Below, one piece after another: positions 28,614-40,387 of a stretch of DNA of 44,060 nucleotides. How positions within the stretch are numbered: the stretch's first letter is position 1; the number at the start of each line of letters is the position of its first letter. The position numbers and the translations under genes are program-made. The stretch comes from Myxococcota bacterium. GTDB taxonomy: Bacteria > Myxococcota > UBA727 > JAHDBA01. The notes below the pieces were generated by a model. The model was given only the letters and a program-made list of their open reading frames with translations, searched no databases and was not told where the DNA came from. The DNA is taken from positions 55,659-99,718 of the forward strand of contig JAHDGS010000001.1 of NCBI GenBank assembly GCA_020627505.1. Reading direction: 5' to 3'.

Positions 28614-28631
28614 AGCACTGACAGCGTGATA

Positions 28632-29330
28632 ATGAATCAGTCTACCATTCTTGTTGTTGATGACGATCCTGCGATTCGTGATGTCATCACATACGCCCTT
28701 GCGCGAGAAGGGTTTGAAGTGTGTGAAGCCCGAGATGGCCACGAAGCCATATCTCAATGGGAACATGTTCAACCAGCGTTGATTGTCCTCGACATCGGAT
28801 TACCTGAAAAAGATGGCTATTCGATTTGTCGCTCAATCAGAGCCCAGGCACAAACACCGATTATTTTCGTGTCTTCACGTGATGAGGAGCTCGATAAATT
28901 GTTGGGACTCGAAATGGGTGGTGATGATTATCTCACAAAACCATTCAGTCCGCGGGAGTTGGTTGCTCGGGTTAAAGCGGTTTTACGACGACTGCATGCC
29001 CCGACGCCGAAACCGGACACAAAGACACGACTGCAATTTGGGGAACTCATCCTCGATTCGCATACGTACGAAGTCTTCTGGGAAACGAATCCGATTGTTC
29101 TAACCGCAACAGAGTTTTCCATGCTTCGCTCTTTTATGGAGATGCCGCGAAAAGTCTTTTCTCGAAATGAGCTGATGGCGTCTGTTTATGGTTATGATGT
29201 TGTGGTCAGCGACCGTACTGTTGATAGTCATATTCGACGGCTCAGAAAAAAATGTGCTGCAGCAGGATGCGAAGCACTCATTCGTACACATCACGGAAAA
29301 GGTTATCAGTTAGCTGAACCCACCACATGA
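28632..29330 (+). CDS. OmpR-family response regulator, CreB-like
   Basis: VVDDD, LDIGLP, KPFSPRELVARV, DRTVDSHIRRLR; in operon with a kinase and creD. Confidence 0.93.
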   Translation: MNQSTILVVDDDPAIRDVITYALAREGFEVCEARDGHEAISQWEHVQPALIVLDIGLPEKDGYSICRSIRAQAQTPIIFVSSRDEELDKLLGLEMGGDDYLTKPFSPRELVARVKAVLRRLHAPTPKPDTKTRLQFGELILDSHTYEVFWETNPIVLTATEFSMLRSFMEMPRKVFSRNELMASVYGYDVVVSDRTVDSHIRRLRKKCAAAGCEALIRTHHGKGYQLAEPTT

Positions 29331-30916
29331 CGCATAGTACAAGAACATTTCGACTTCAACTCAGAACGGTTGTTCTACTTATTATGATGATGACACTGCT
29401 TCTACCGATTGGTGGCATTATGTTTTTTCGATTATATGAGAATGAAATTGTGCGTCAGACGGAACGAGAGCTGGTGGCACAGGCCGCATTCATATCATCA
29501 TTTTTATTAAATGCGACAGATCATAGTCAGTTAGAGAAACGGTCCGTCAGTCCAAAATGGCCAGGACTGAAAGACCCGAATGGTCGTTTCCAGCCACTTG
29601 AGTTTCATACAGATATTACGAAAGAGTATATTCGGGGGCCGCGGCCAGAGCCGCAACAACGAGACATCCCCCCAAAACCGGAAGCCCTTTTGTTTGGAGA
29701 CTATGTTTCTGATTTTTTGGAGACAGCCAAAAAAACAACGCTGGCAGGGATGAAAGTCCTTGATGCCAATGGTATCCAACTCAATCGAGGTGCAGGTCAC
29801 GGGCAATCTTTTGCCCACATTCATGAAGTCGCACAGGCGCAAAATGGTATACCAGAGATCGTCTTGCGCGCTCGAGAATATGACTCTCCATTTCCACGGC
29901 TTTCATCTCTGAGCCGTGGTTCAGGTATTCGTATGTTTCTGGCCTATCCAGTGATTAAAGATCAAAAATTGTTTGGTATTGTTTATCTGTCTCGAACACC
30001 AAAGCGGCCTTTTAAGCAGCTCTATATCGATCGATATCAGCTATTGGTTTTTCTTTTATCAATTGTCGGTTGTGCCGTACTCATCGGTCTCTTTATCTCA
30101 TTTATGTTGACGCAACCACTCAAGAAGCTTGCACACAAAGCGGCTGACTACGCCCAAAACCCGCAGCAACATCAAGCCCATATTGCCCGGCCAATGACAC
30201 ATGAGATTGCCAATGTCGATGATGCCCTTGATTCGATGGCACAAAAATTGGCAGCACGAATGGCGGCTCTTGATCGTTTTGCGGGATATGTTTCTCACGA
30301 GCTCAAAAATCCGATTGCGGCCATTAAAGGATCGCTTGAACTCATCACTGATGATGATGATATGTCTGTCGAGCAGCGCCACAAGTTTGTGAACAACGCA
30401 TTTGAAAGCGCTTCTCACCTTGAACAAATTCTTTCAAGACTTGTTGAACTGACAAGGCTTGAAAATGAGCATCATAGCCACGCTAAAATATCCCTCTCTC
30501 GACTCCGTGAACTGACTGGCGAAATTGTAAAAGAATCGGCGCCACTTCAGCTGACCTGGCCCGATGAGTTGGATATCGAAGACATCCATATATCTGAACC
30601 TGCCTGGCATCATATTATACATAACCTGTTTAGTAATAGTGTAAAGCATCAGGCACAACATGTCGTATTCTCAATCAAACAACAGTCTTCAACGATTGTT
30701 TTGACCTACCATGATGATGGAACAGGAATTTCTCACGGAAATCTAGACAAAGTCTTTCAGCCATTCTTTACCCTGCACAAATCCTCAGGCGGAACAGGAC
30801 TTGGATTGACATTCGTGAAAACCTTACTTGAACAAAGAGAAGCCACAATCGAACCTGTCTTTTCAGATTCTGGCGCTCAATTTGTCATCACAATACCTTT
30901 TGGTCGAAACGAATAG
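29327..30916 (+). CDS. Sensor histidine kinase, CreC-like
   Basis: Two TM helices, HAMP, SHELKNP, N-box NLFSNS.KH, DDGTGI, GGTGLGL; ATGA overlap with the regulator. Confidence 0.93.
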   Translation: MTHSTRTFRLQLRTVVLLIMMMTLLLPIGGIMFFRLYENEIVRQTERELVAQAAFISSFLLNATDHSQLEKRSVSPKWPGLKDPNGRFQPLEFHTDITKEYIRGPRPEPQQRDIPPKPEALLFGDYVSDFLETAKKTTLAGMKVLDANGIQLNRGAGHGQSFAHIHEVAQAQNGIPEIVLRAREYDSPFPRLSSLSRGSGIRMFLAYPVIKDQKLFGIVYLSRTPKRPFKQLYIDRYQLLVFLLSIVGCAVLIGLFISFMLTQPLKKLAHKAADYAQNPQQHQAHIARPMTHEIANVDDALDSMAQKLAARMAALDRFAGYVSHELKNPIAAIKGSLELITDDDDMSVEQRHKFVNNAFESASHLEQILSRLVELTRLENEHHSHAKISLSRLRELTGEIVKESAPLQLTWPDELDIEDIHISEPAWHHIIHNLFSNSVKHQAQHVVFSIKQQSSTIVLTYHDDGTGISHGNLDKVFQPFFTLHKSSGGTGLGLTFVKTLLEQREATIEPVFSDSGAQFVITIPFGRNE

Positions 30917-30963
30917 GTGCTTGTCATCTTTGAGATAACGACAACAGTGCGTGCAACATCAAA

Positions 30964-31002
30964 TGTGCAAAAGTTGTGACATTTGCGTAGCACTTTTGTG
31001 CA
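30964..31002 (+). promoter_or_regulatory. Candidate response-regulator direct repeats upstream of creD
   Basis: TGTG at 30964, 30975 and 30997 (11-bp phase), typical spacing for OmpR-family sites. Confidence 0.35.
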
Positions 31003-31055
31003 TAGGCGTTTAGTTCATCAATCTACCGTTATGATGATCTCGAAAAGGAGATCGT

Positions 31056-32582
31056 ATGAGCAATACAAAAGATAATGAAAAACAACAAAGTGACTGGACA
31101 TTCGGAGAACAAATCGATGATGCTTCCGTATCGACGCATTCGAAAGAGGATGCAGTGAAACAAAAATATACTCGACTACCGGCTCATCACAGTGAACCTT
31201 CTTTTTGGAAAAGACACCAACGCGCGCTGAAGTTATGCCCACTGGTTATTCTTTTACTCCTATCAAATATTCCACTTTCAATGGTATACAACTTAGCCAT
31301 TGAGCGTCTTGACTATCGTGCAGAAGCGACACGAACGACTGTGAAAGCATGGGGGAACTCAGGTCGAACCTCTGGTCCCATTTTACAGATACCAGTGGAA
31401 CGGACCATTCAAGTCAAAAATGACGATAAGTGGGAAGACAAAAAAGTTGAAGAGATTGTTTTTATTATGCCAAATGAACTTTCTGTCACAGCTGATGCTG
31501 AACATCATACACGGCAGAAAGGAATATATGATGTCTTACTTGGTGATATCGAAACAAAAATGGAAGGCCATATATCTAAGACACGTTTAGAATCTATTTT
31601 AAAGGAGACGAATGTTCGACCGCTTCTTCAGAAAGCAAGCCTTATCGTTGCCATACCCGAAACATCTGGCATCAAAGCAGCAACGCTTAACTGGCAAGGT
31701 GAACAACCTGTGGTCAGACCCATATCAAATTTACCACTATTCGAGAATGAGCGAGGAACCGGTCTCGTGATTGAGCTGTCGCAAAATATTTATCAAATGA
31801 TCGAAGATGAAAACTACACAGGGACTTTTTCAGTCTCGCTTAAATTAGCGGCAACTGATCATTTTAAAATGCCGATTTCTGCATCATCACATACATTACA
31901 TGTTCGCTCTAATTGGCCGCATCCAAGCTTTTCTGGGGCCTATCTACCTGATGAACGTGAGATTTCTGAGCAGGGTTTTACCGCTCACTTTACAACAAAT
32001 GCGCTACAAAGTGGTCTAACGCATGTGTTGACGCATCGACAACGCTTGGATTCAGAGCAATCTTTTGAGCTCGCCTTTAAAAATCCAACGGATGCTTACG
32101 CACAATTCTTACGCACAACCAAATATGGGATGCTCCTTATCTTACTAACATTTGGCATGTATTTTATTTTCGAATTATTAAGTCGGGAACGTTTGCATAT
32201 TATTCAATATGGACTGGTTGGACTTTCTTTAAGCGTCTTTTTCTTATTATTACTTGGCTTCTCTGAACATGTTGGGTTTGGTTTCGCTTATCTCATTGCA
32301 AGTTGTGCGACCGTTGGCTTGGTGGCGATTTATTTATCTGCCGTATTAAGTAACAAAAAATTTGTTGGCCTTCAATCTGGTTTGATGGGCCTGACATTAT
32401 GGTTCATGCATCACCTGGTTGGTATGGAGCAAGGATCCTTACTCGTCGGTGCACTCGGTGCTTTTGCCACACTGAGTACCATCATGTGGACATCAAGGAA
32501 TATCGACTGGTACAGTCTTGGGAAAACTCAAGAACAACCTCAGCCGATGACAGCGAATACATCTTCACTGAAGGTCTTTTAA
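31056..32582 (+). CDS. creD: Inner membrane protein CreD
   Basis: GPIL.IP, SNWPHPSF.G.YLP..REIS..GF.A, R.TKYG.L.I.LTF, H.IQY.LVGL, LLLGFSEH.GF..AY, R.IDWY. Confidence 0.95.
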   Translation: MSNTKDNEKQQSDWTFGEQIDDASVSTHSKEDAVKQKYTRLPAHHSEPSFWKRHQRALKLCPLVILLLLSNIPLSMVYNLAIERLDYRAEATRTTVKAWGNSGRTSGPILQIPVERTIQVKNDDKWEDKKVEEIVFIMPNELSVTADAEHHTRQKGIYDVLLGDIETKMEGHISKTRLESILKETNVRPLLQKASLIVAIPETSGIKAATLNWQGEQPVVRPISNLPLFENERGTGLVIELSQNIYQMIEDENYTGTFSVSLKLAATDHFKMPISASSHTLHVRSNWPHPSFSGAYLPDEREISEQGFTAHFTTNALQSGLTHVLTHRQRLDSEQSFELAFKNPTDAYAQFLRTTKYGMLLILLTFGMYFIFELLSRERLHIIQYGLVGLSLSVFFLLLLGFSEHVGFGFAYLIASCATVGLVAIYLSAVLSNKKFVGLQSGLMGLTLWFMHHLVGMEQGSLLVGALGAFATLSTIMWTSRNIDWYSLGKTQEQPQPMTANTSSLKVF

Positions 32583-33430
32583 ACTGAAGCTGAAAGTTCA
32601 TTCAATAAATGGGGACCATATTTCATCAATGTGGTCCCCACTTGTACAATTTGGGCACCACATTTCATATGCTTTTTAACATCTAAGGCTGTTTCAACAC
32701 CACCGCAGCCAATCATTTCAATTTCTGGTCTAAGGCGTTTTCTGAGATGACTGACATTGGCCAAGGCAATGGGAAGAATCATGGGTCCGCCTATACCACC
32801 ATGTCCGTCTTTGGGCACAATCACTGATTTTAAGTCTTCATCTAGCCAGAGTGCATTGCCTGGACTATTGATGGCCGTCACAAAAGAGACAGATGAACGA
32901 TTGAGCAGTTCTGTAATTTGATCGAAATGTATTGGGTCAAAATAAGGAGGGAGCTTGACCCCCCAAGGCTTGTCAAAAATGATACCAAGCTGCTTGAGTA
33001 AATATTCAGTTGTTTGAAAATCATATGCCACTTGTGGTTTTCCATCGATATTTGGGCAGGACAAATTGACTTCGATCGCCAGCGCCTTCGAACAATTCGC
33101 ACGATGCGCCACACGTATTAACTCATTGAGAGAAAGTCCTGCGATCGATAATATGATCCGATGTGCGCGCATTGAATTCAGTGTGATGAAGTTAATATAT
33201 GCATCAATTCCAAGATTCGGTAAGCCCATCGAATTAATACTTCCACCAGGTATCTCTGCATACCGTGGCTTTATATTACCCTGACGCGGATGAAGAGTTG
33301 CTGTTTTAGTGACGATCAGTCCTTTCGTGTTCTTTAGAAGTATTGATAGCTCGTCTAACGTTGTGCAATGAACACCGGCCGCATTCATCACATGAGATTT
33401 GAGTTGATGTCCTAGAAAAGTATGTCTCAT
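32579..33430 (-). CDS. pyrD: Dihydroorotate dehydrogenase class 1A (soluble, fumarate-type)
   Basis: MNAAGV.C, R.GN..PRY, GSINSMGLPN.G, EVNLSCPN, GVKLPPYFD, GGIGG...P.ALANV. Confidence 0.93.
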   Translation of the reverse strand: MRHTFLGHQLKSHVMNAAGVHCTTLDELSILLKNTKGLIVTKTATLHPRQGNIKPRYAEIPGGSINSMGLPNLGIDAYINFITLNSMRAHRIILSIAGLSLNELIRVAHRANCSKALAIEVNLSCPNIDGKPQVAYDFQTTEYLLKQLGIIFDKPWGVKLPPYFDPIHFDQITELLNRSSVSFVTAINSPGNALWLDEDLKSVIVPKDGHGGIGGPMILPIALANVSHLRKRLRPEIEMIGCGGVETALDVKKHMKCGAQIVQVGTTLMKYGPHLLNELSASV

Positions 33431-34686
33431 CGAAATTGTCTTTTAGCTTCTTGAATCTGCCGCATATACACACATGCTGTCTCGTAAGGCCTGTCAGCTT
33501 GGCGAATGCCTCGCCCGACAATGCAAAAGTCCGTGCCTTGGCGTATGACATCCTCCGGCGTTCTATATCGCTGACCTGCTTGATCTTGGCCTTGTTCTAT
33601 CTTCACCCCCGGTGTACATATTTGATATTGGCGAGAAAGCCCAACCGGTCTTTGTTGCATAACCACACCGGCACATGACTCGAGCGCTGGCAACATCTCG
33701 ATGATTTTCTTCGTATATGCTTTGTCGATCAAGTTATGTGATGACGACATTTCCCCAAGCACCAGCAGCTCTATTTCGTGGTAGCCACACGCTCGATCAA
33801 GCGCCTCAACGCTCTCACGTCCAGCGATACCGTGACAAATAATAGCATCTGCCCACTTCGTATATTTGTATCGACTTTGTTCGAGTTGTCGAACCATGAT
33901 CGAGCCAATATCAGCGAACTTTCTATCTTCGATCAAATAGAGTTGATACCGGCGTTTGAGTTGATTCAGTTTTGCGATCGTCAGATCATTAAAGTCATGA
34001 ACGACATCAGCATGTATTTTGAATATTTTGACCACTTCAGCCAGTGACTCAATGATATGAAGAAGTTGTGCACTATCTTCGACATCAGCAGAAAATATGA
34101 GCGGCGATTTTGTGACGTCATGGAGCTTTAACTTGTGACTCGGTATTTCTTTAACCGAATTCTGACTGATGTCATCGAGTGTAAATAAGTATTTTAAAGA
34201 GATGTTTTCCTCAGCAAAGCGCGCTTTGACATCGCGATTTCGAATGCAGACCGCGAGCACTTCTTCTACGTATATGCCTTCTGCGCGAAGGTCTGTGATT
34301 GCTTTAAGGGTTGAAGCACCTGTCGTGATCACGTCTTCAATCACTGTGACGTTCGTCGTTGCAGAAGATATTTCTGACGGTTTCAGTAACAGAGAGCTAT
34401 CGCCATATGCTTTTTCTTCTTTTCGGAGAAGCCACATTGGTCGATTCGCGCACTGTGATATCAGGCTTGCTAATGGTAGCGCCCCCCATGGTACACCTAT
34501 TATTGCGTGGGTCGATGTCGATAAACTCATCGCCATCTGAGTTGCAATGCGTTTAAATAAGCGTGGGTGAAAGCTCAGCTCTCTCAGATTTAAATACAAA
34601 TTCGATTGCTGTCCTGATTTTAAAACGAACGTCCCCGTTTTGAGTATCTGCTTCTCTTTTAATTCTAAAATAATATCTTGCATCAT
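33427..34686 (-). CDS. Bifunctional UMP synthase (N-terminal OPRT, C-terminal eukaryote-type OMP decarboxylase)
   Basis: G.FVLKSGQ.S..Y.NLR, RKE.K.YG, VIEDVITTGAS; SADV, K.H.D, EDRKFADIG, WAD, EMSS, TPGV, D..GQ.Y.TP, IVGRGI. Confidence 0.93.
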   Translation of the reverse strand: MMQDIILELKEKQILKTGTFVLKSGQQSNLYLNLRELSFHPRLFKRIATQMAMSLSTSTHAIIGVPWGALPLASLISQCANRPMWLLRKEEKAYGDSSLLLKPSEISSATTNVTVIEDVITTGASTLKAITDLRAEGIYVEEVLAVCIRNRDVKARFAEENISLKYLFTLDDISQNSVKEIPSHKLKLHDVTKSPLIFSADVEDSAQLLHIIESLAEVVKIFKIHADVVHDFNDLTIAKLNQLKRRYQLYLIEDRKFADIGSIMVRQLEQSRYKYTKWADAIICHGIAGRESVEALDRACGYHEIELLVLGEMSSSHNLIDKAYTKKIIEMLPALESCAGVVMQQRPVGLSRQYQICTPGVKIEQGQDQAGQRYRTPEDVIRQGTDFCIVGRGIRQADRPYETACVYMRQIQEAKRQFR

Positions 34687-34744: not shown

Positions 34745-35641
34745 CTACCATGTCTTTGGTAATTGATTCGAAAGCTGTAAACCTCGCATCAAACGTGTTA
34801 GCCCAATGCCACCACCAGAGCGTGGAACAAAGTCAAGACTGAGAAATTGGTCCATTTCTCGCTCAACCCGCTCCTTAGAGAATTTGCTGTACAATAGTTG
34901 GGCGTACTCACCATTTTCAATCGTATCGAATCCTTGACGCATTTGTTCCGGATCACAGCTGCGCTCAGCGGAGCCGATTGTCTCCATACCATGTACCAAA
35001 ACATCAACCTTCGCCGACATATCAGGTCTCCCATCATATCGCTTCATATTCCAAAACGGATTTGTCTGTTCAGGGAAGTCTCTTAAAAAGAAGACAGGCC
35101 CATTTTTCTCACAAAGCCCTTGTTCATGCTCATTCTCCAACGTGTCCACACCATATCCTTGCGCTATCTCTTGATAAAAGCCGCCAGGAAACGCCGTTTT
35201 GTCTCCCATACCAAGGTGTTCTAGTAACTCGCTTTCAAGAGAAATAAGTTCTTCAACACCACCATGCATTTCAAACTCAAACATTGGAAACATCCAATGG
35301 TGGCGTCCTGCTGTCGGGTTTGGTTCATAGCGATAGCTTGTGGACACGCAATAAAATCCTGGTACATTTTTTTTCGTCAACAATTCCCACTCTAGCCACA
35401 TTTGCCCCGTCTGCGGCAATGGCCACGTCTCCCCTGCATAATCAAATGTTGCGATGGTCTTCGGGTCTTCACATGCGGCCAGAATACTCAAACGGTTTTG
35501 GGTGTGTACTTCTAGAAATCCTTTCTTTTCGAAAAACTGACGCATACGCGACACAGTCCAGTGAAACGGCCGTGGATCAATATGTGGAACCCAGTCATTA
35601 GAAACGCCTGGAACTGCTTTTGGGGTTAACGTATTAAACAT
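34745..35641 (-). CDS. Class IIb aminoacyl-tRNA synthetase paralog (Asn/AspRS catalytic domain only; asparagine synthetase AS-AR-like)
   Basis: 298 aa, no OB-fold; motif 1 MRQFF..KGFLEV.T, LPQTGQMWLE, motif 2 SYR.E....GRH...F.M.EFEM, motif 3 SGGGIG.TRL; AAAGGAG RBS. Confidence 0.88.
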   Translation of the reverse strand: MFNTLTPKAVPGVSNDWVPHIDPRPFHWTVSRMRQFFEKKGFLEVHTQNRLSILAACEDPKTIATFDYAGETWPLPQTGQMWLEWELLTKKNVPGFYCVSTSYRYEPNPTAGRHHWMFPMFEFEMHGGVEELISLESELLEHLGMGDKTAFPGGFYQEIAQGYGVDTLENEHEQGLCEKNGPVFFLRDFPEQTNPFWNMKRYDGRPDMSAKVDVLVHGMETIGSAERSCDPEQMRQGFDTIENGEYAQLLYSKFSKERVEREMDQFLSLDFVPRSGGGIGLTRLMRGLQLSNQLPKTW

Positions 35642-35876
35642 CTTTGACTCCTTTGATGTTGAGGTGAAATAAAGACTGTAAGAATTTGGGCAAAAAAAAG
35701 TCGGCAATCATGCCGACAAATAATTCGAAGCTCGAAACGCCTATCTTGAACGACATCAAGTGATCTGGAACATGCCAAAAAAAAAGCCGGCTAAAATGCC
35801 GGGACAATAGTAGAAACACATCCGCTTTTGGTTGCTGCCAAAACTGCTGATTCGTTATCGAATGTGCGCATGTCAT
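35634..35876 (-). CDS. Putative leader (attenuator) ORF, 80 aa
   Basis: ATG 7 nt after TTGCTG-16-TATTTT; open through two terminators; stop lies just past the downstream ATG. Confidence 0.45.
   Translation of the reverse strand: MTCAHSITNQQFWQQPKADVFLLLSRHFSRLFFWHVPDHLMSFKIGVSSFELFVGMIADFFLPKFLQSLFHLNIKGVKDV
35692..35717 (-). terminator. Leader terminator 2
   Basis: GTCGGCA-TGAT-TGCCGAC then T8 on the minus strand. Confidence 0.8.
35777..35802 (-). terminator. Leader terminator 1
   Basis: CCGGC-ATTTTA-GCCGG, C, then T9 on the minus strand. Confidence 0.7.
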
Positions 35877-35921
35877 GAGCGCAAAATACACGAGTCTGTC
35901 GAAACAGCAAGTCTCCAGGAT

Positions 35922-35972
35922 AAAAAAACGACATGTCCCTAGACCATCACCCGGATGGAAAAGCAACATGTC
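35922..35972 (-). terminator. Probable terminator of the small lipoprotein gene
   Basis: GACATGT...CCATC/GATGG...ACATGTC interrupted stem followed by G and T7. Confidence 0.55.
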
Positions 35973-35989
35973 ATTTTTGAGCTATCAAA

Positions 35990-36181
35990 TTATGATTCGG
36001 CTTCTGCGTCCTCTGCCTCTTCTTCAGCCTCAACACCTCCGTCAAGACCAGCATCGACCTGCTCGCATGCTGGTTGACCATCCATGCCACATTCCTCTTT
36101 ATCTTCACCACATGCGATCGAGATCACAGTCAGAAGTGTCAACAGACCTACTGTCACTAACGCTCTTACATTACCTTTCAT
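35990..36181 (-). CDS. Small acidic lipoprotein (63 aa)
   Basis: GGGAGG RBS; basic n-region, h-region, SIAC lipobox; CGMDGQPAC; own promoter and terminator. Confidence 0.8.
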   Translation of the reverse strand: MKGNVRALVTVGLLTLLTVISIACGEDKEECGMDGQPACEQVDAGLDGGVEAEEEAEDAEAES

Positions 36182-36210
36182 GTTACCTCCCTTTCGGATA
36201 CGAAATATGA

Positions 36211-36226
36211 AGCAGAGAGCATGCCA
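36211..36226 (-). promoter_or_regulatory. Sigma54 (-24/-12) promoter
   Basis: TGGCATG-CTCT-CTGCT with exact GG-N10-GC spacing, 30 nt upstream of ATG. Confidence 0.6.
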
Positions 36227-36367
36227 TTTTTCTTAAACCAAAATATTTCAATGAGTTATAATGTCTGGCATCTTAATTATTCAAGAAATCAGCAGTCACT
36301 GTGACAAATATGTCATGTCTTGGGTTCGACAGAGGACAAGAAAGATCATAGTCGCTACACTACCAGA

Positions 36368-37474
36368 GTGACGAAAATATATTTGGTGACATTTTTATTA
36401 TTGACGACTGCTTGTCATAATCAGACAGCAGCAGATCCGCCTGAACGTCATTCATCTGATGACACATATTATGAGTATATTGTTCCAAATGATGACACAC
36501 TTGATGAAGGCCAGGATGAAGAAGCAGAGGATGTGAATCAGAATCCCGTTGATGAGCCACTTTTTGTGCCTGAAATCGATCCAAGTGATTTCTTGTGCAA
36601 TCGTTTCGGCTACAGTGAGCCTTTACCACGTCCTTCGCTTCGTATTCCAGATACAATACCGACAAATGTCGAAGAACGAAATCAACTGGTGTATGACTTG
36701 ATTCGAGATCGGTTGCCTCAAGCACTCGAAATTCTCGATGGTGCCTTACAAAATACTGCTGAAAATTGTGTGACACGATTTTCAGCTAATATGAATACAC
36801 GCGAAGACCTCGCACGACAAATGCCAACACTTGTGCATGAATGTGGGCACTTTTGGTGGTTCGAAAACTACAGTTCAAGTGACGCTGCCTTCGCTGTCGC
36901 ACCAGGGATTCGCAATACCTGTTCAGGCGGAGGGCCTTCAACCCAATTTGGGCGTTCATTTGCACGCGGCTTGATACGGAATGACGCTGAAGAACCGAAA
37001 TGGCCACCTTGCGCAGGTGCGCAAGTGGATCAATGTGATATTTATGCTGACACTTATCTTGGTGGTGATCCCGCGGATGCAGCAAGCGTCTCATCAGGTG
37101 GGCAAGGCTTCGATTCACTTTTTGAAGAAGTCCTTGAATATGTCAATGGTCTCAGTGCAGGCATTGCCTTTGAAGAATATTTTGGTGATCGACGTATCTC
37201 GATTCGAGATGGCGTCTCAACGACCTTGTGGTATCTTGCTCGTTATCTCAACTATGCAAAAGTCAATGAACCTTCCGTTTATGAATTACTCAGTGAAGAC
37301 CCATGTTGGCGAGAATCGATTTTGATTGTGTGGGCACGTGGAATGTATTTTTTGAATCAAGCAAACAACTTAGATAAACTCAGTATTGTTTCAGAAGATG
37401 TTGAACGGCTCTTAAATCAAGAACATATTCAAGAGGTTTTTTATGAACTCCAGCGAGTCCACGGTTGTCGCTAA
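36368..37474 (+). CDS. Lipoprotein with HExxH motif (zincin-like)
   Basis: TTAC lipobox after GTG 36368; LVHECGH; downstream LFEE..EY. Confidence 0.8.
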   Translation: MTKIYLVTFLLLTTACHNQTAADPPERHSSDDTYYEYIVPNDDTLDEGQDEEAEDVNQNPVDEPLFVPEIDPSDFLCNRFGYSEPLPRPSLRIPDTIPTNVEERNQLVYDLIRDRLPQALEILDGALQNTAENCVTRFSANMNTREDLARQMPTLVHECGHFWWFENYSSSDAAFAVAPGIRNTCSGGGPSTQFGRSFARGLIRNDAEEPKWPPCAGAQVDQCDIYADTYLGGDPADAASVSSGGQGFDSLFEEVLEYVNGLSAGIAFEEYFGDRRISIRDGVSTTLWYLARYLNYAKVNEPSVYELLSEDPCWRESILIVWARGMYFLNQANNLDKLSIVSEDVERLLNQEHIQEVFYELQRVHGCR

Positions 37475-39413: not shown

Positions 39414-39755
39414 ATGTACTGCGTCATCTACAAGTTCAAAGCGAAGCCAGGATTCGAAGAACAGTTCGAAAAGAATTGGCGTATCCATACAGATAACATC
39501 TACAAGCATCTTGGCAGCCTCGGTTCTCGCCTTCATAAGCTTGATGAAGAAAGAAGCTATATGGCCTATGCGCAATGGCCTTCAAAAGATGTGTATGCAT
39601 CAGAAAAAACTGAGCACATGACCCAGTTCTCAGATGCCGACCTGCTAGCACAAAAGAACCTTGCTGATTCTTTAGAATCTAGTGAAGTCATTTTTGAAGG
39701 TGAAGTGATTGACGATCGGCTAGAGGTGGTCACCCATATTCATGACCTTATTTAA
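39414..39755 (+). CDS. Antibiotic biosynthesis monooxygenase (ABM)-like small protein
   Basis: VIYKFK.KPG.EEQF...W, GSLGSRLH, AYAQWPS. Confidence 0.8.
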   Translation: MYCVIYKFKAKPGFEEQFEKNWRIHTDNIYKHLGSLGSRLHKLDEERSYMAYAQWPSKDVYASEKTEHMTQFSDADLLAQKNLADSLESSEVIFEGEVIDDRLEVVTHIHDLI

Positions 39756-40007
39756 GATTCTGATAATGATGACGTCATTTTTCTCATACCTATAAAACAC
39801 GAAATGTTTTTGACTGGTGATAAAACGATATCCTTTCTTAGAATATGGAAAGTGTCGACCCAAATCATACTCACAAATCTTTTGTTCAATATCATGGTAC
39901 AATCGGTCAATATACTTATCTGCCTGATGGACGCCCCACTGCTGATATGAATAATGATAAATTGACTCGAGATCTTCTTCCGCTAGTGGAGTGAATTTTA
40001 TATTCAT
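39720..40007 (-). CDS. parE: Type II toxin, ParE/RelE family
   Basis: FTPLAEEDL.SI..YS...WG..QAD.Y, H.VFYR, IIRIL...M. Confidence 0.92.
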   Translation of the reverse strand: MNIKFTPLAEEDLESIYHYSYQQWGVHQADKYIDRLYHDIEQKICEYDLGRHFPYSKKGYRFITSQKHFVFYRYEKNDVIIIRILNKVMNMGDHL

Positions 40008-40017
40008 GAGCTAGGAT

Positions 40018-40278
40018 TTACTGAAAGTCGTTGTTGGATATTTTCTCTTTCATTCTTAATTTGAAATCATCTTTCGCGACTTTTCGTGGTTCACCGCTCT
40101 CTTCTCCAAGTCGCAATGCCTGATTCATTGAGTCGATATATTGTTGTCTATCTTCTAATAATCTTAACGCAGAACGTATGACTTCGCTCACAGAGGCGTA
40201 TCGACCAGAGGCAACCTCAGCCTTCAAAAAAGTATCGAAATGATCTCCTAAAATGATTGATGTATTTTTCGCCAACAT
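40018..40278 (-). CDS. parD: Type II antitoxin, ParD (CC2985-type RHH)
   Basis: KNTSI.LG.HF..F, V.SGRY.S.SEVIR.ALRLLE, L..GE.SG; GAGG RBS before ATG 40278. Confidence 0.93.
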   Translation of the reverse strand: MLAKNTSIILGDHFDTFLKAEVASGRYASVSEVIRSALRLLEDRQQYIDSMNQALRLGEESGEPRKVAKDDFKLRMKEKISNNDFQ

Positions 40279-40292
40279 AAACCTCATTCTAA

Positions 40293-40313
40293 ATATACCA
40301 TATTCTGGTATAT
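40293..40313. promoter_or_regulatory. Probable ParD autoregulatory operator
   Basis: Perfect inverted repeat ATATACCA-N5-TGGTATAT 15 nt upstream of the parD start. Confidence 0.65.
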
Positions 40314-40387
40314 CTATCAAACCTCCTTTATACCTTCCGATTGAACTTGAGGATTCGTGTGTTTAAATCTCGGAAAAGATGATTTAT

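Follow-up and report, generated by a model that had tools for sequence, protein, structure and literature searches.

Why should two intrinsic terminators stand in series within a single open reading frame (ORF), between a promoter-like site and the first gene of a biosynthetic operon? The question is raised by a 44,060-nucleotide (nt) stretch of contig JAHDGS010000001.1 from a Myxococcota bacterium, called the window here, whose minus strand encodes a paralog of the class-II aminoacyl-tRNA synthetases (aaRS) followed by a fused PyrE-PyrF protein and by PyrD. A first-pass annotation of the leader of this operon had proposed a tandem attenuator, independent of PyrR, that senses uridine triphosphate (UTP) through a leaderless leader ORF. 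Judged by their sequence, the two terminators, T1 and T2, are a real tandem 5' leader attenuator of the paralog-pyrEF-pyrD operon. We consider it about an even chance that they act as a leaderless, ribosome-coupled variant of the attenuators of the pyrBI and pyrE kind.

Results

T1 (35777..35802, on the minus strand like all features of the leader) has a 5-bp all-GC stem (35802-35787) with a 6-nt loop, followed by a C and nine T residues that end at 35777; it folds at -9.2 kcal/mol, with a z score against shuffled sequences of -2.4. T2 (35692..35717) has a 7-bp stem (35717-35700), a 4-nt loop and eight T residues that end at 35692 (-12.6 kcal/mol, z -5.3). Upstream of both lies a promoter-like pair (35883..35910), composed of TTGCTG (35910-35905) and TATTTT (35888-35883) with a 16-nt spacer, and 6 nt 3' of the TATTTT hexamer is ATG 35876, with no motif resembling a Shine-Dalgarno (SD) sequence 5' of it. 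This ATG opens a leader ORF of 80 codons (35634..35876) that spans T1 and T2 and whose product has no Pfam or NCBIfam match. Its TAA (35636-35634) lies 5 nt past the ATG of the paralog (35641-35639) and overlaps codons 2 and 3 of that gene, which has an SD sequence of its own, AAGGAG at 35653-35648 (the two elements together span 35639..35653). The promoter-like site is separated from the paralog start by 245 nt and T2 by only 50 nt. As the promoter scan lists no promoter-like site in this last gap, transcription would have to pass the terminators in order to reach the gene. Smaller hairpins in the leader, one of them TTTTGG/CCAAAA at 35826..35843 (-5.3 kcal/mol, z -0.44) and the others with z scores of 0.14 and +1.35, fold no better than shuffles, and we rejected them as pause hairpins.

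Such a pair is rare in the genome in which it was found. The assembly (G000) is a 2.77-Mb metagenome-assembled genome (MAG) of 167 contigs and is 70% complete. Over both strands of the whole assembly, a GC-containing stem stands immediately before a run of at least eight T residues at 26 sites; T1 and T2 are two of these and lie 86 nt apart on the same strand. When the terminator rule is relaxed, a single co-directional terminator is found in the 250 nt upstream of 157 of the 2101 ORF-called genes, while two or more precede only 4 of them, all four being weak or within coding sequence; this count skipped the window's own case because the longest-ORF start of the paralog overlaps T2. A wider list for the same assembly holds 70 cases of a terminator followed by a gene. 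The public runs listed for this DNA comprise three DNA runs, all from one algae-metagenome sample, and no RNA run. Contigs from these runs that cover 35400-36300 do not differ from the window; their depth is low and their cover has gaps, so that they supply no variants. Taken alone, the window establishes the double terminator in the leader; it does not establish that the frame is translated.

Leader DNA was sought in 40 relatives and was matched only in the window's own genome. In a sample of 401 genomes from the phylum, 4 have the paralog, and the best non-self proteins are 63-67% identical to it. As the collections searched contained no close relative of the leader, we compared homologous loci instead: the best 80 of 403 in a genome collection, three same-order loci and the best 80 of at least 556 in a metagenome collection. 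Outside the Bacteroidota (47 loci), a proximal co-directional terminator, ending within about 130 nt of the start, precedes 20 of the 41 paralog genes that could be scored and 21 of the 287 other genes at these loci (Fisher, 4e-10). Two or more leader terminators precede 5 of 41 paralog genes and 0 of 287 others (2e-5; the loci are mutually related, here and in the tests below), and terminators are 12-fold enriched before the paralog family. There is no such enrichment at the Bacteroidota loci (2 of 30 paralog genes, 10 of 131 others), and nearly all of the metagenome loci, as the best 80 of at least 556, are low in GC and have no leader terminators, with proximal ones present only in L144 and L148. 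In six loci (L079, L085, L086, L082, L045 and L075) only 2-18 nt separate the end of the last terminator from the start codon, which leaves no room for a promoter between the two.

The closest parallel is found in a sister locus, L010, whose paralog protein groups with that of the window (support 0.98) and whose gene order is the same (paralog-PyrEF-PyrD). Its 650-nt leader (L010:3330-3976), in DNA of 66% GC, has four tandem terminators, each a hairpin with a T8 run and with a G directly 3' of the U tract. This leader adjoins a divergent gene, so that its four terminators end no upstream gene. Terminator stems recur within clades of the paralog and at loci whose lineage labels differ: CCGGC/GCCGG is common to T1 of the window and to L010, and a second stem, CCGCC/GGCGG, is found in L041, L042, L044, L054, L062 and L144; L044 and L054 also share a -35 region. 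These recurring stems suggest that leader and gene may move together as one cassette.

The leader frame was examined in 24 loci, one being kept of each near-identical pair. We scored an ATG or GTG at least 40 nt 5' of the first leader hairpin whose frame stays open to within 12 nt of that hairpin or beyond it, and took dinucleotide shuffles as background. Such an ORF reaches the first terminator in 22 of the 24 loci, against 9.0 expected (P, 4e-9, with thresholds picked on the same set of loci), and in 23 of 24, against 14.1, when the minimum is lowered to 20 nt. Controls are flat: 11 of 24 against 9.4 for the reverse complement, 7 of 24 against 7.8 for the reversed sequence and 11 of 23 against 10.2 for the 100 nt upstream. 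The metagenome loci supplied only two further cases as an independent replication, of which one had such an ORF (0.6 expected). As in the window, the frame spans two terminators in L044, L054 and L042; that of L148 spans the first terminator and stops in the loop of the second, and those of L041, L061, L075, L079, L085, L086 and L088 stop within 12 nt of the hairpin or inside it.

The starts of these ORFs are also placed non-randomly. In 16 of 23 loci, against 5.6 expected (P, 8e-7), a hexamer of the form TAnnnT lies upstream of the leader ORF and ends 4-14 nt short of its start codon, the window being one of the 16 by virtue of its TATTTT; SD-like motifs 5' of the ORF are found in 2 of 23. 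The leaders of the Patescibacteria measure only about 40-65 nt from the -10 hexamer to the hairpin. The leader peptides have neither a conserved sequence nor a dominant codon across loci, and translation as such, from the very 5' end into the terminator, seems to be what selection keeps. In 7 of 23 loci, one of them the window, the leader ORF stops between -4 and +8 relative to the main start, but we dropped this overlap as a special sign, since many main genes begin with ATGA and one frame in three would end there.

Discussion

Much of the first-pass annotation is borne out by these comparisons. Both hairpins with their U9 and U8 tails, ATG 35876, the 80-codon frame that stops just after the paralog start and the promoter-like hexamers are all present on the minus strand where they had been reported. 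The claim of a leader attenuator with two terminators gains from the rarity of such pairs in the genome and from their enrichment before the paralog family, and the idea that the transcript begins with a start codon whose frame enters the terminators agrees with a non-random pattern at 23-24 distant homologous loci. Two elements stand only in part. The hexamers and the 16-nt spacer of the supposed sigma70-like promoter exist, but they match only 7 of 12 consensus positions; the TTTTGG/CCAAAA hairpin is present in the sequence, but its folding is at chance level.

From the anatomy of the leader, its rarity and the recurrence of its layout, we infer where transcription starts, that the leader is translated, that ribosome and polymerase are coupled and what is sensed. 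RNA polymerase would start at ATG 35876 or a few bases from it, and would have transcribed about 75-100 nt on meeting T1 and about 160-185 nt on meeting T2; at these it would terminate unless a ribosome followed closely. The ribosome would load without an SD sequence on the 5'-terminal ATG and, by covering the 5' arms, would prevent the hairpins from forming. Since the frame runs through both terminators, one coupled ribosome could carry the polymerase past both of them, and the end of the frame, 5 nt past the paralog ATG, would allow a hand-over to translation of the aaRS paralog, PyrE-PyrF and PyrD. The switch would in effect read how closely translation stays behind transcription. One account (PMC4824070) describes how a ribosome at or near a terminator suppresses it by preventing the hairpin, how terminators in the first ~100 nt of a frame escape suppression, the ribosome having not yet caught up, unless pausing couples both machines, and how pause sites in the pyrBI leader set the pace. 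As T1 lies 75-100 nt from the predicted start, termination would be the default, with passage only when the polymerase is delayed. Given the T-rich stretches before the hairpins, the likeliest input would be a polymerase slowed by low UTP.

Several points weigh against this reading. The start site and the 3' ends are predicted from sequence only. The promoter-like pair was missed by the promoter scan, whose threshold is 9/12, and would at best be a weak promoter. The 80-codon frame is open further 5', through the terminator of the upstream lipoprotein gene (T0) to ATG 35969 (111 codons), so read-through from that gene is possible. Downstream of T2, a weak -10-like TACAGT (35680-35675) may serve as the operon promoter at this locus. 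When the window leader is shuffled with the terminators held fixed, an ATG or GTG frame that spans both of them and starts at least 40 nt before T1 arises in 9% of cases (p~0.09), and other frames in the window cross single terminators. The codon score of the leader ORF (0.019) is lower than that of 99% of 80-codon windows in real genes of this genome (mean, 0.239), and the GC-rich loci L010, L042 and L062 have no leader frame with an excess of GC at third codon positions (GC3; 0.51-0.68 as against 0.86-0.95 in the gene); codon-usage and GC3 tests, for their part, carry no information on a frame in which RNA features determine the sequence. Finally, the mutual relatedness of the compared loci means that the P values given above overstate their independence.

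That UTP is the signal is a tentative proposal, which we hold with less confidence than the coupling itself. The pyrimidine genes downstream of the leader count in its favor, as does the composition of the flanks. The 20 nt before T1 and the 20 nt before T2 each contain 10 T residues, and over 31 leader terminators the T excess in the 5' flank is +0.10, against -0.01 for the remaining 148 terminator-like sites at these loci (p, 2e-5), although some second terminators in this set follow the U tract of the first. A stricter comparison, of first terminators only (24) with strong controls (36), leaves a modest difference (+0.088 against +0.018; p, 0.035), which tells against UTP. So does the gene content of other carriers. 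The genomes of L054 and L044 (G402 and G403; 1.5 Mb each) have double-terminator leaders with spanning frames before the paralog, and neither PyrB nor PyrD was found in them. Among five Patescibacterial genomes with the device, for which completeness figures are lacking, carA was found in 0 of 5 and orotidine monophosphate (OMP) decarboxylase in 1 of 5; in that one, the pyrE-pyrF operon has a promoter but no leader terminator. By its distribution, the device follows the paralog and not pyrimidine genes generally, and the sensed signal would depend on the product of the paralog. The first-pass annotation had taken the attenuator as independent support for pyrimidine regulation of the paralog; given the occurrence of the device in genomes where no pyr genes were found, the attenuator does not by itself establish such regulation.

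The same observations bear on an explanation that we judge unlikely, namely that the coupling device is as described but reports the general state of translation or growth, or another nucleotide than UTP, and is open whenever ribosomes keep up. It would account for a layout that is tied to the paralog in carriers where PyrD, PyrB, carA or, in 4 of 5, OMP decarboxylase was not found, for a pyrE-pyrF operon without the device in one such genome, and for leader peptides that share neither sequence nor dominant codon. It does not account for the T-rich flanks 5' of the hairpins, nor for the presence of pyrEF and pyrD in the regulated operon of the window's own clade (the window and L010). Turning off a biosynthetic gene when translation slows would, moreover, have no obvious logic.

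It is also possible, but in our view rather improbable, that the ribosome has no part in the control and that the frame is incidental, the terminators being governed by a small-molecule-binding RNA, an RNA-binding protein or a processive antitermination factor that loads early. Serial terminators, of which there are two to four (window and L010), suit processive antitermination; the leader frame has no codon-usage or GC3 signature of coding, and the window frame alone reaches only the p~0.09 given above. A structured aptamer is disfavored by the lack of any Rfam match and by the folding of the leader as a whole, which is no better than that of shuffles (z -1.04). With Rfam 15 at E<=10, the region gave only sub-threshold matches that cover the terminator, and at E<=0.1 the leaders of eight relatives' loci gave none. 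The window resembles PyrR-mediated attenuation (RF00515) in having terminators in the leader of a pyrimidine operon, and differs from it in the binding motif, for which there was no match at E<=10 in 35300-36400 and none in the 70%-complete G000, the B. subtilis and L. lactis controls being detected; PyrR independence, as first proposed, fits these results. The Patescibacterial leaders, at about 40-65 nt from -10 to hairpin, also speak against this type of control, which furthermore leaves unexplained the enrichment of ORFs that reach the terminator, that of -10 hexamers just before their starts, and the flat controls.

A third explanation, with poor prospects, is that there is no switch at all. 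T1 and T2 would then serve the lipoprotein gene as back-up terminators or insulators, or would form the 3' ends of small RNAs (sRNAs), and the operon would be transcribed from a promoter at TACAGT that overlaps T2, or by constitutive leak. T0, T1 and T2 do all lie 3' of the lipoprotein gene on the same strand, TACAGT is 34 nt 5' of the paralog ATG, and there are weak matches to Rfam sRNA models over the T2 hairpin and tail. However, TACAGT has no accompanying -35 hexamer and the scan lists no promoter there, while the sRNA matches are far under their gathering scores and cover the terminator only. Nor would this explanation predict the 12-fold enrichment of terminators before one gene family, the four L010 terminators that follow a divergent gene, or the several relatives in which terminators lie so close to the start codon that a promoter has no room.

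An amino-acid-responsive leader peptide of the trp or his type, for example one sensing asparagine if the paralog were an asparagine synthetase, is highly improbable: the paralog is nearest to the AsnRS and AspRS cores and some leader ORFs of Patescibacteria (L088, L075) have Asn codons at their end, next to the hairpin, but 2 of the 80 codons in the window leader are for Asn and no codon run occurs there, Asn makes up 27 of 632 residues over 20 leader ORFs, no residue dominates the last six codons before the hairpin, and no alternative antiterminator pairing or stable alternative fold stands out. A single amino acid, Asn or other, was rejected as the signal for lack of enrichment in the leader ORFs.

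The ribosome-coupled attenuator can be set beside several known systems. In the E. coli rph-pyrE operon, a ribosome that finishes the upstream frame near the terminator suppresses it. Several of the relatives' leader ORFs are similar in that they stop near or inside the hairpin; the window differs, as its frame passes through both terminators and is a dedicated mini-ORF, not a real gene. The pyrL leader ORF of E. coli pyrBI has its own ribosome-binding site, a feature of the class that is absent from the window, where the leader ORF lacks an SD sequence and starts at the predicted 5' end. Further differences from pyrBI are the two serial terminators of the window (four in L010), the length of the leader frame (80 codons here; 135 bp for the leader gene of E. 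coli) and its setting, which is an unrelated uncultured bacterium where it stands ahead of an aaRS paralog and of the late pyrimidine genes pyrEF and pyrD. Features of the pyrBI/pyrE class that are present in the window are an intrinsic terminator in the leader of a pyr operon and a frame, predicted to be translated, that reaches or crosses the terminator. U-rich sequence precedes the hairpin in pyrBI, for which the T-rich flanks of T1 and T2 may be a counterpart, and neither a repressor protein nor an antiterminator hairpin would be needed. By analogy, termination would be relieved here, as in pyrBI, only by a closely following ribosome. As in the window, pyrBI has an intrinsic terminator with about 8 U inside a leader ORF before pyrimidine genes (PMC4824070).

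Leaderless short ORFs of mycobacteria that encode polycysteine are described as cysteine-responsive attenuators (bioRxiv 10.1101/834739). The window leader would resemble these in being a leaderless short ORF that acts as first cistron and controls the genes behind it; unlike them, with their runs of Cys codons, it has one Cys and no run, and its output is through intrinsic terminators inside the frame. The Salmonella mgtCBR leader (PMC3641672) has two separate short ORFs that respond to different signals through alternative stem-loops. Like the proposed window attenuator, it has more than one translation-read attenuator in series, but in the window a single frame spans both terminators. Relative to the pyrBI and pyrE attenuators, the element differs in its tandem of terminators, in the lack of an SD sequence, and in its gene and lineage. 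No account of this element was found in the literature searched on leaderless leader-peptide attenuators.

The regulated operon begins with the paralog (34745..35641, minus strand), a class-II aaRS-like protein of 298 aa that consists only of a catalytic core of the Asp/Asn/Lys type (PF00152). It has weak matches to the asnS and aspS models, and the nearest solved structures are distant. The gene is followed on the same strand by the PyrE-PyrF fusion (33427..34686; orotate phosphoribosyltransferase and OMP decarboxylase, by family match) and by PyrD of class 1A (32579..33430; dihydroorotate oxidase), the last gene of the operon, which overlaps pyrEF by 4 nt. The pyrF of the window is the only OMP decarboxylase found in the assembly. 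Aspartate carbamoyltransferase and the large subunit of carbamoyl-phosphate synthase were not found in this 70%-complete genome, and the sole early-pathway candidate is a dihydroorotase-like amidohydrolase (G000:C156:16446-17723, L093), which scores 198 bits, under the family cut-off of 279.

A link between the paralog and late pyrimidine genes is seen outside the window as well. In 19 of 80 genome-collection loci, among them L003, L005, L010, L011-L019, L059 and L076, the paralog is linked to PyrD and/or PyrE-F in several arrangements. PyrB (aspartate carbamoyltransferase) was not found in G031 (99% complete) or G023 (92% complete), where the paralog adjoins PyrD/PyrE-F. This absence of PyrB beside the linkage is compatible with a possible role of the paralog in the supply of pyrimidine precursors, and the paralog may provide such a precursor in a way not yet described; one chemically possible speculation is that it activates the beta-carboxyl of Asp as AsnA does. 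No account of this leader or of the link between the paralog and pyrimidines was found in the literature searched (supplements excluded). The family is very large, with at least 8000 matches at about 60% identity, and is spread over the Bacteroidota, Patescibacteria, Dependentiae and Rickettsiales-like and other Pseudomonadota MAGs. Two homologues (P0027 and P0064) are named 'transposase' in their NCBI records; given that they are 59% identical to a PF00152 protein, the name appears to be a misannotation.

The surroundings of the gene vary among the loci. In nine Patescibacterial loci (L061, L063, L066, L067, L071, L079, L083, L088 and L089) the order is Dus (tRNA dihydrouridine synthase), leader, paralog, DnaX, and the leader promoter overlaps the end of dus. 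A GatA-type amidase replaces Dus upstream in L020 and L053. In the window, the switch is bounded by, and does not include, a lipoprotein-like ORF of 63 codons (35990..36181, minus strand) with a strong SD sequence and a gene-like codon score of 0.412, for which there is no Pfam or NCBIfam match. Its terminator, T0 (35921..35975, minus strand), is a long branched hairpin followed by T7 (-22.7 kcal/mol, z -5.2). With the frame open to ATG 35969, three terminator-like hairpins thus lie inside one open frame. A CreB-CreC-CreD-like two-component cluster (28626-32582, plus strand) converges on the operon, overlapping the end of pyrD by 4 nt. Farther away on the minus strand are a ParD-family antitoxin-like ORF (40018-40320) and, beside it, a small ORF (39720-40007) with no family match.

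Ribosome-coupled attenuation that needs no antiterminator is textbook knowledge only for pyrBI and pyrE of enteric bacteria. A broader proposal, which we put forward as speculative and rather doubtful, is that the leaders described here may belong to one class of leaderless, ribosome-coupled attenuators that crosses phyla and has between one and four intrinsic terminators. These would have travelled horizontally with the gene of an uncharacterised AsnRS-like ligase through Pseudomonadota-type MAGs, Bdellovibrio-like MAGs and Patescibacteria, and in the window's clade would provide repressor-free UTP control of a non-canonical pyrimidine pathway, composed of the ligase, PyrD 1A and the PyrE-PyrF fusion, with no aspartate carbamoyltransferase found. 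If this is true, the same principle would operate, in a leaderless and multi-terminator form, across very distant lineages that include the Patescibacteria, and a large family of uncharacterised aaRS-like enzymes would be tightly regulated. The element is small (about 250 nt), and assays in vitro or with reporters in E. coli would not require the host to be grown. In the window's clade, the enzyme sits with late pyrimidine genes where early ones were not found; hence, the switch would be a handle on what this enzyme makes.

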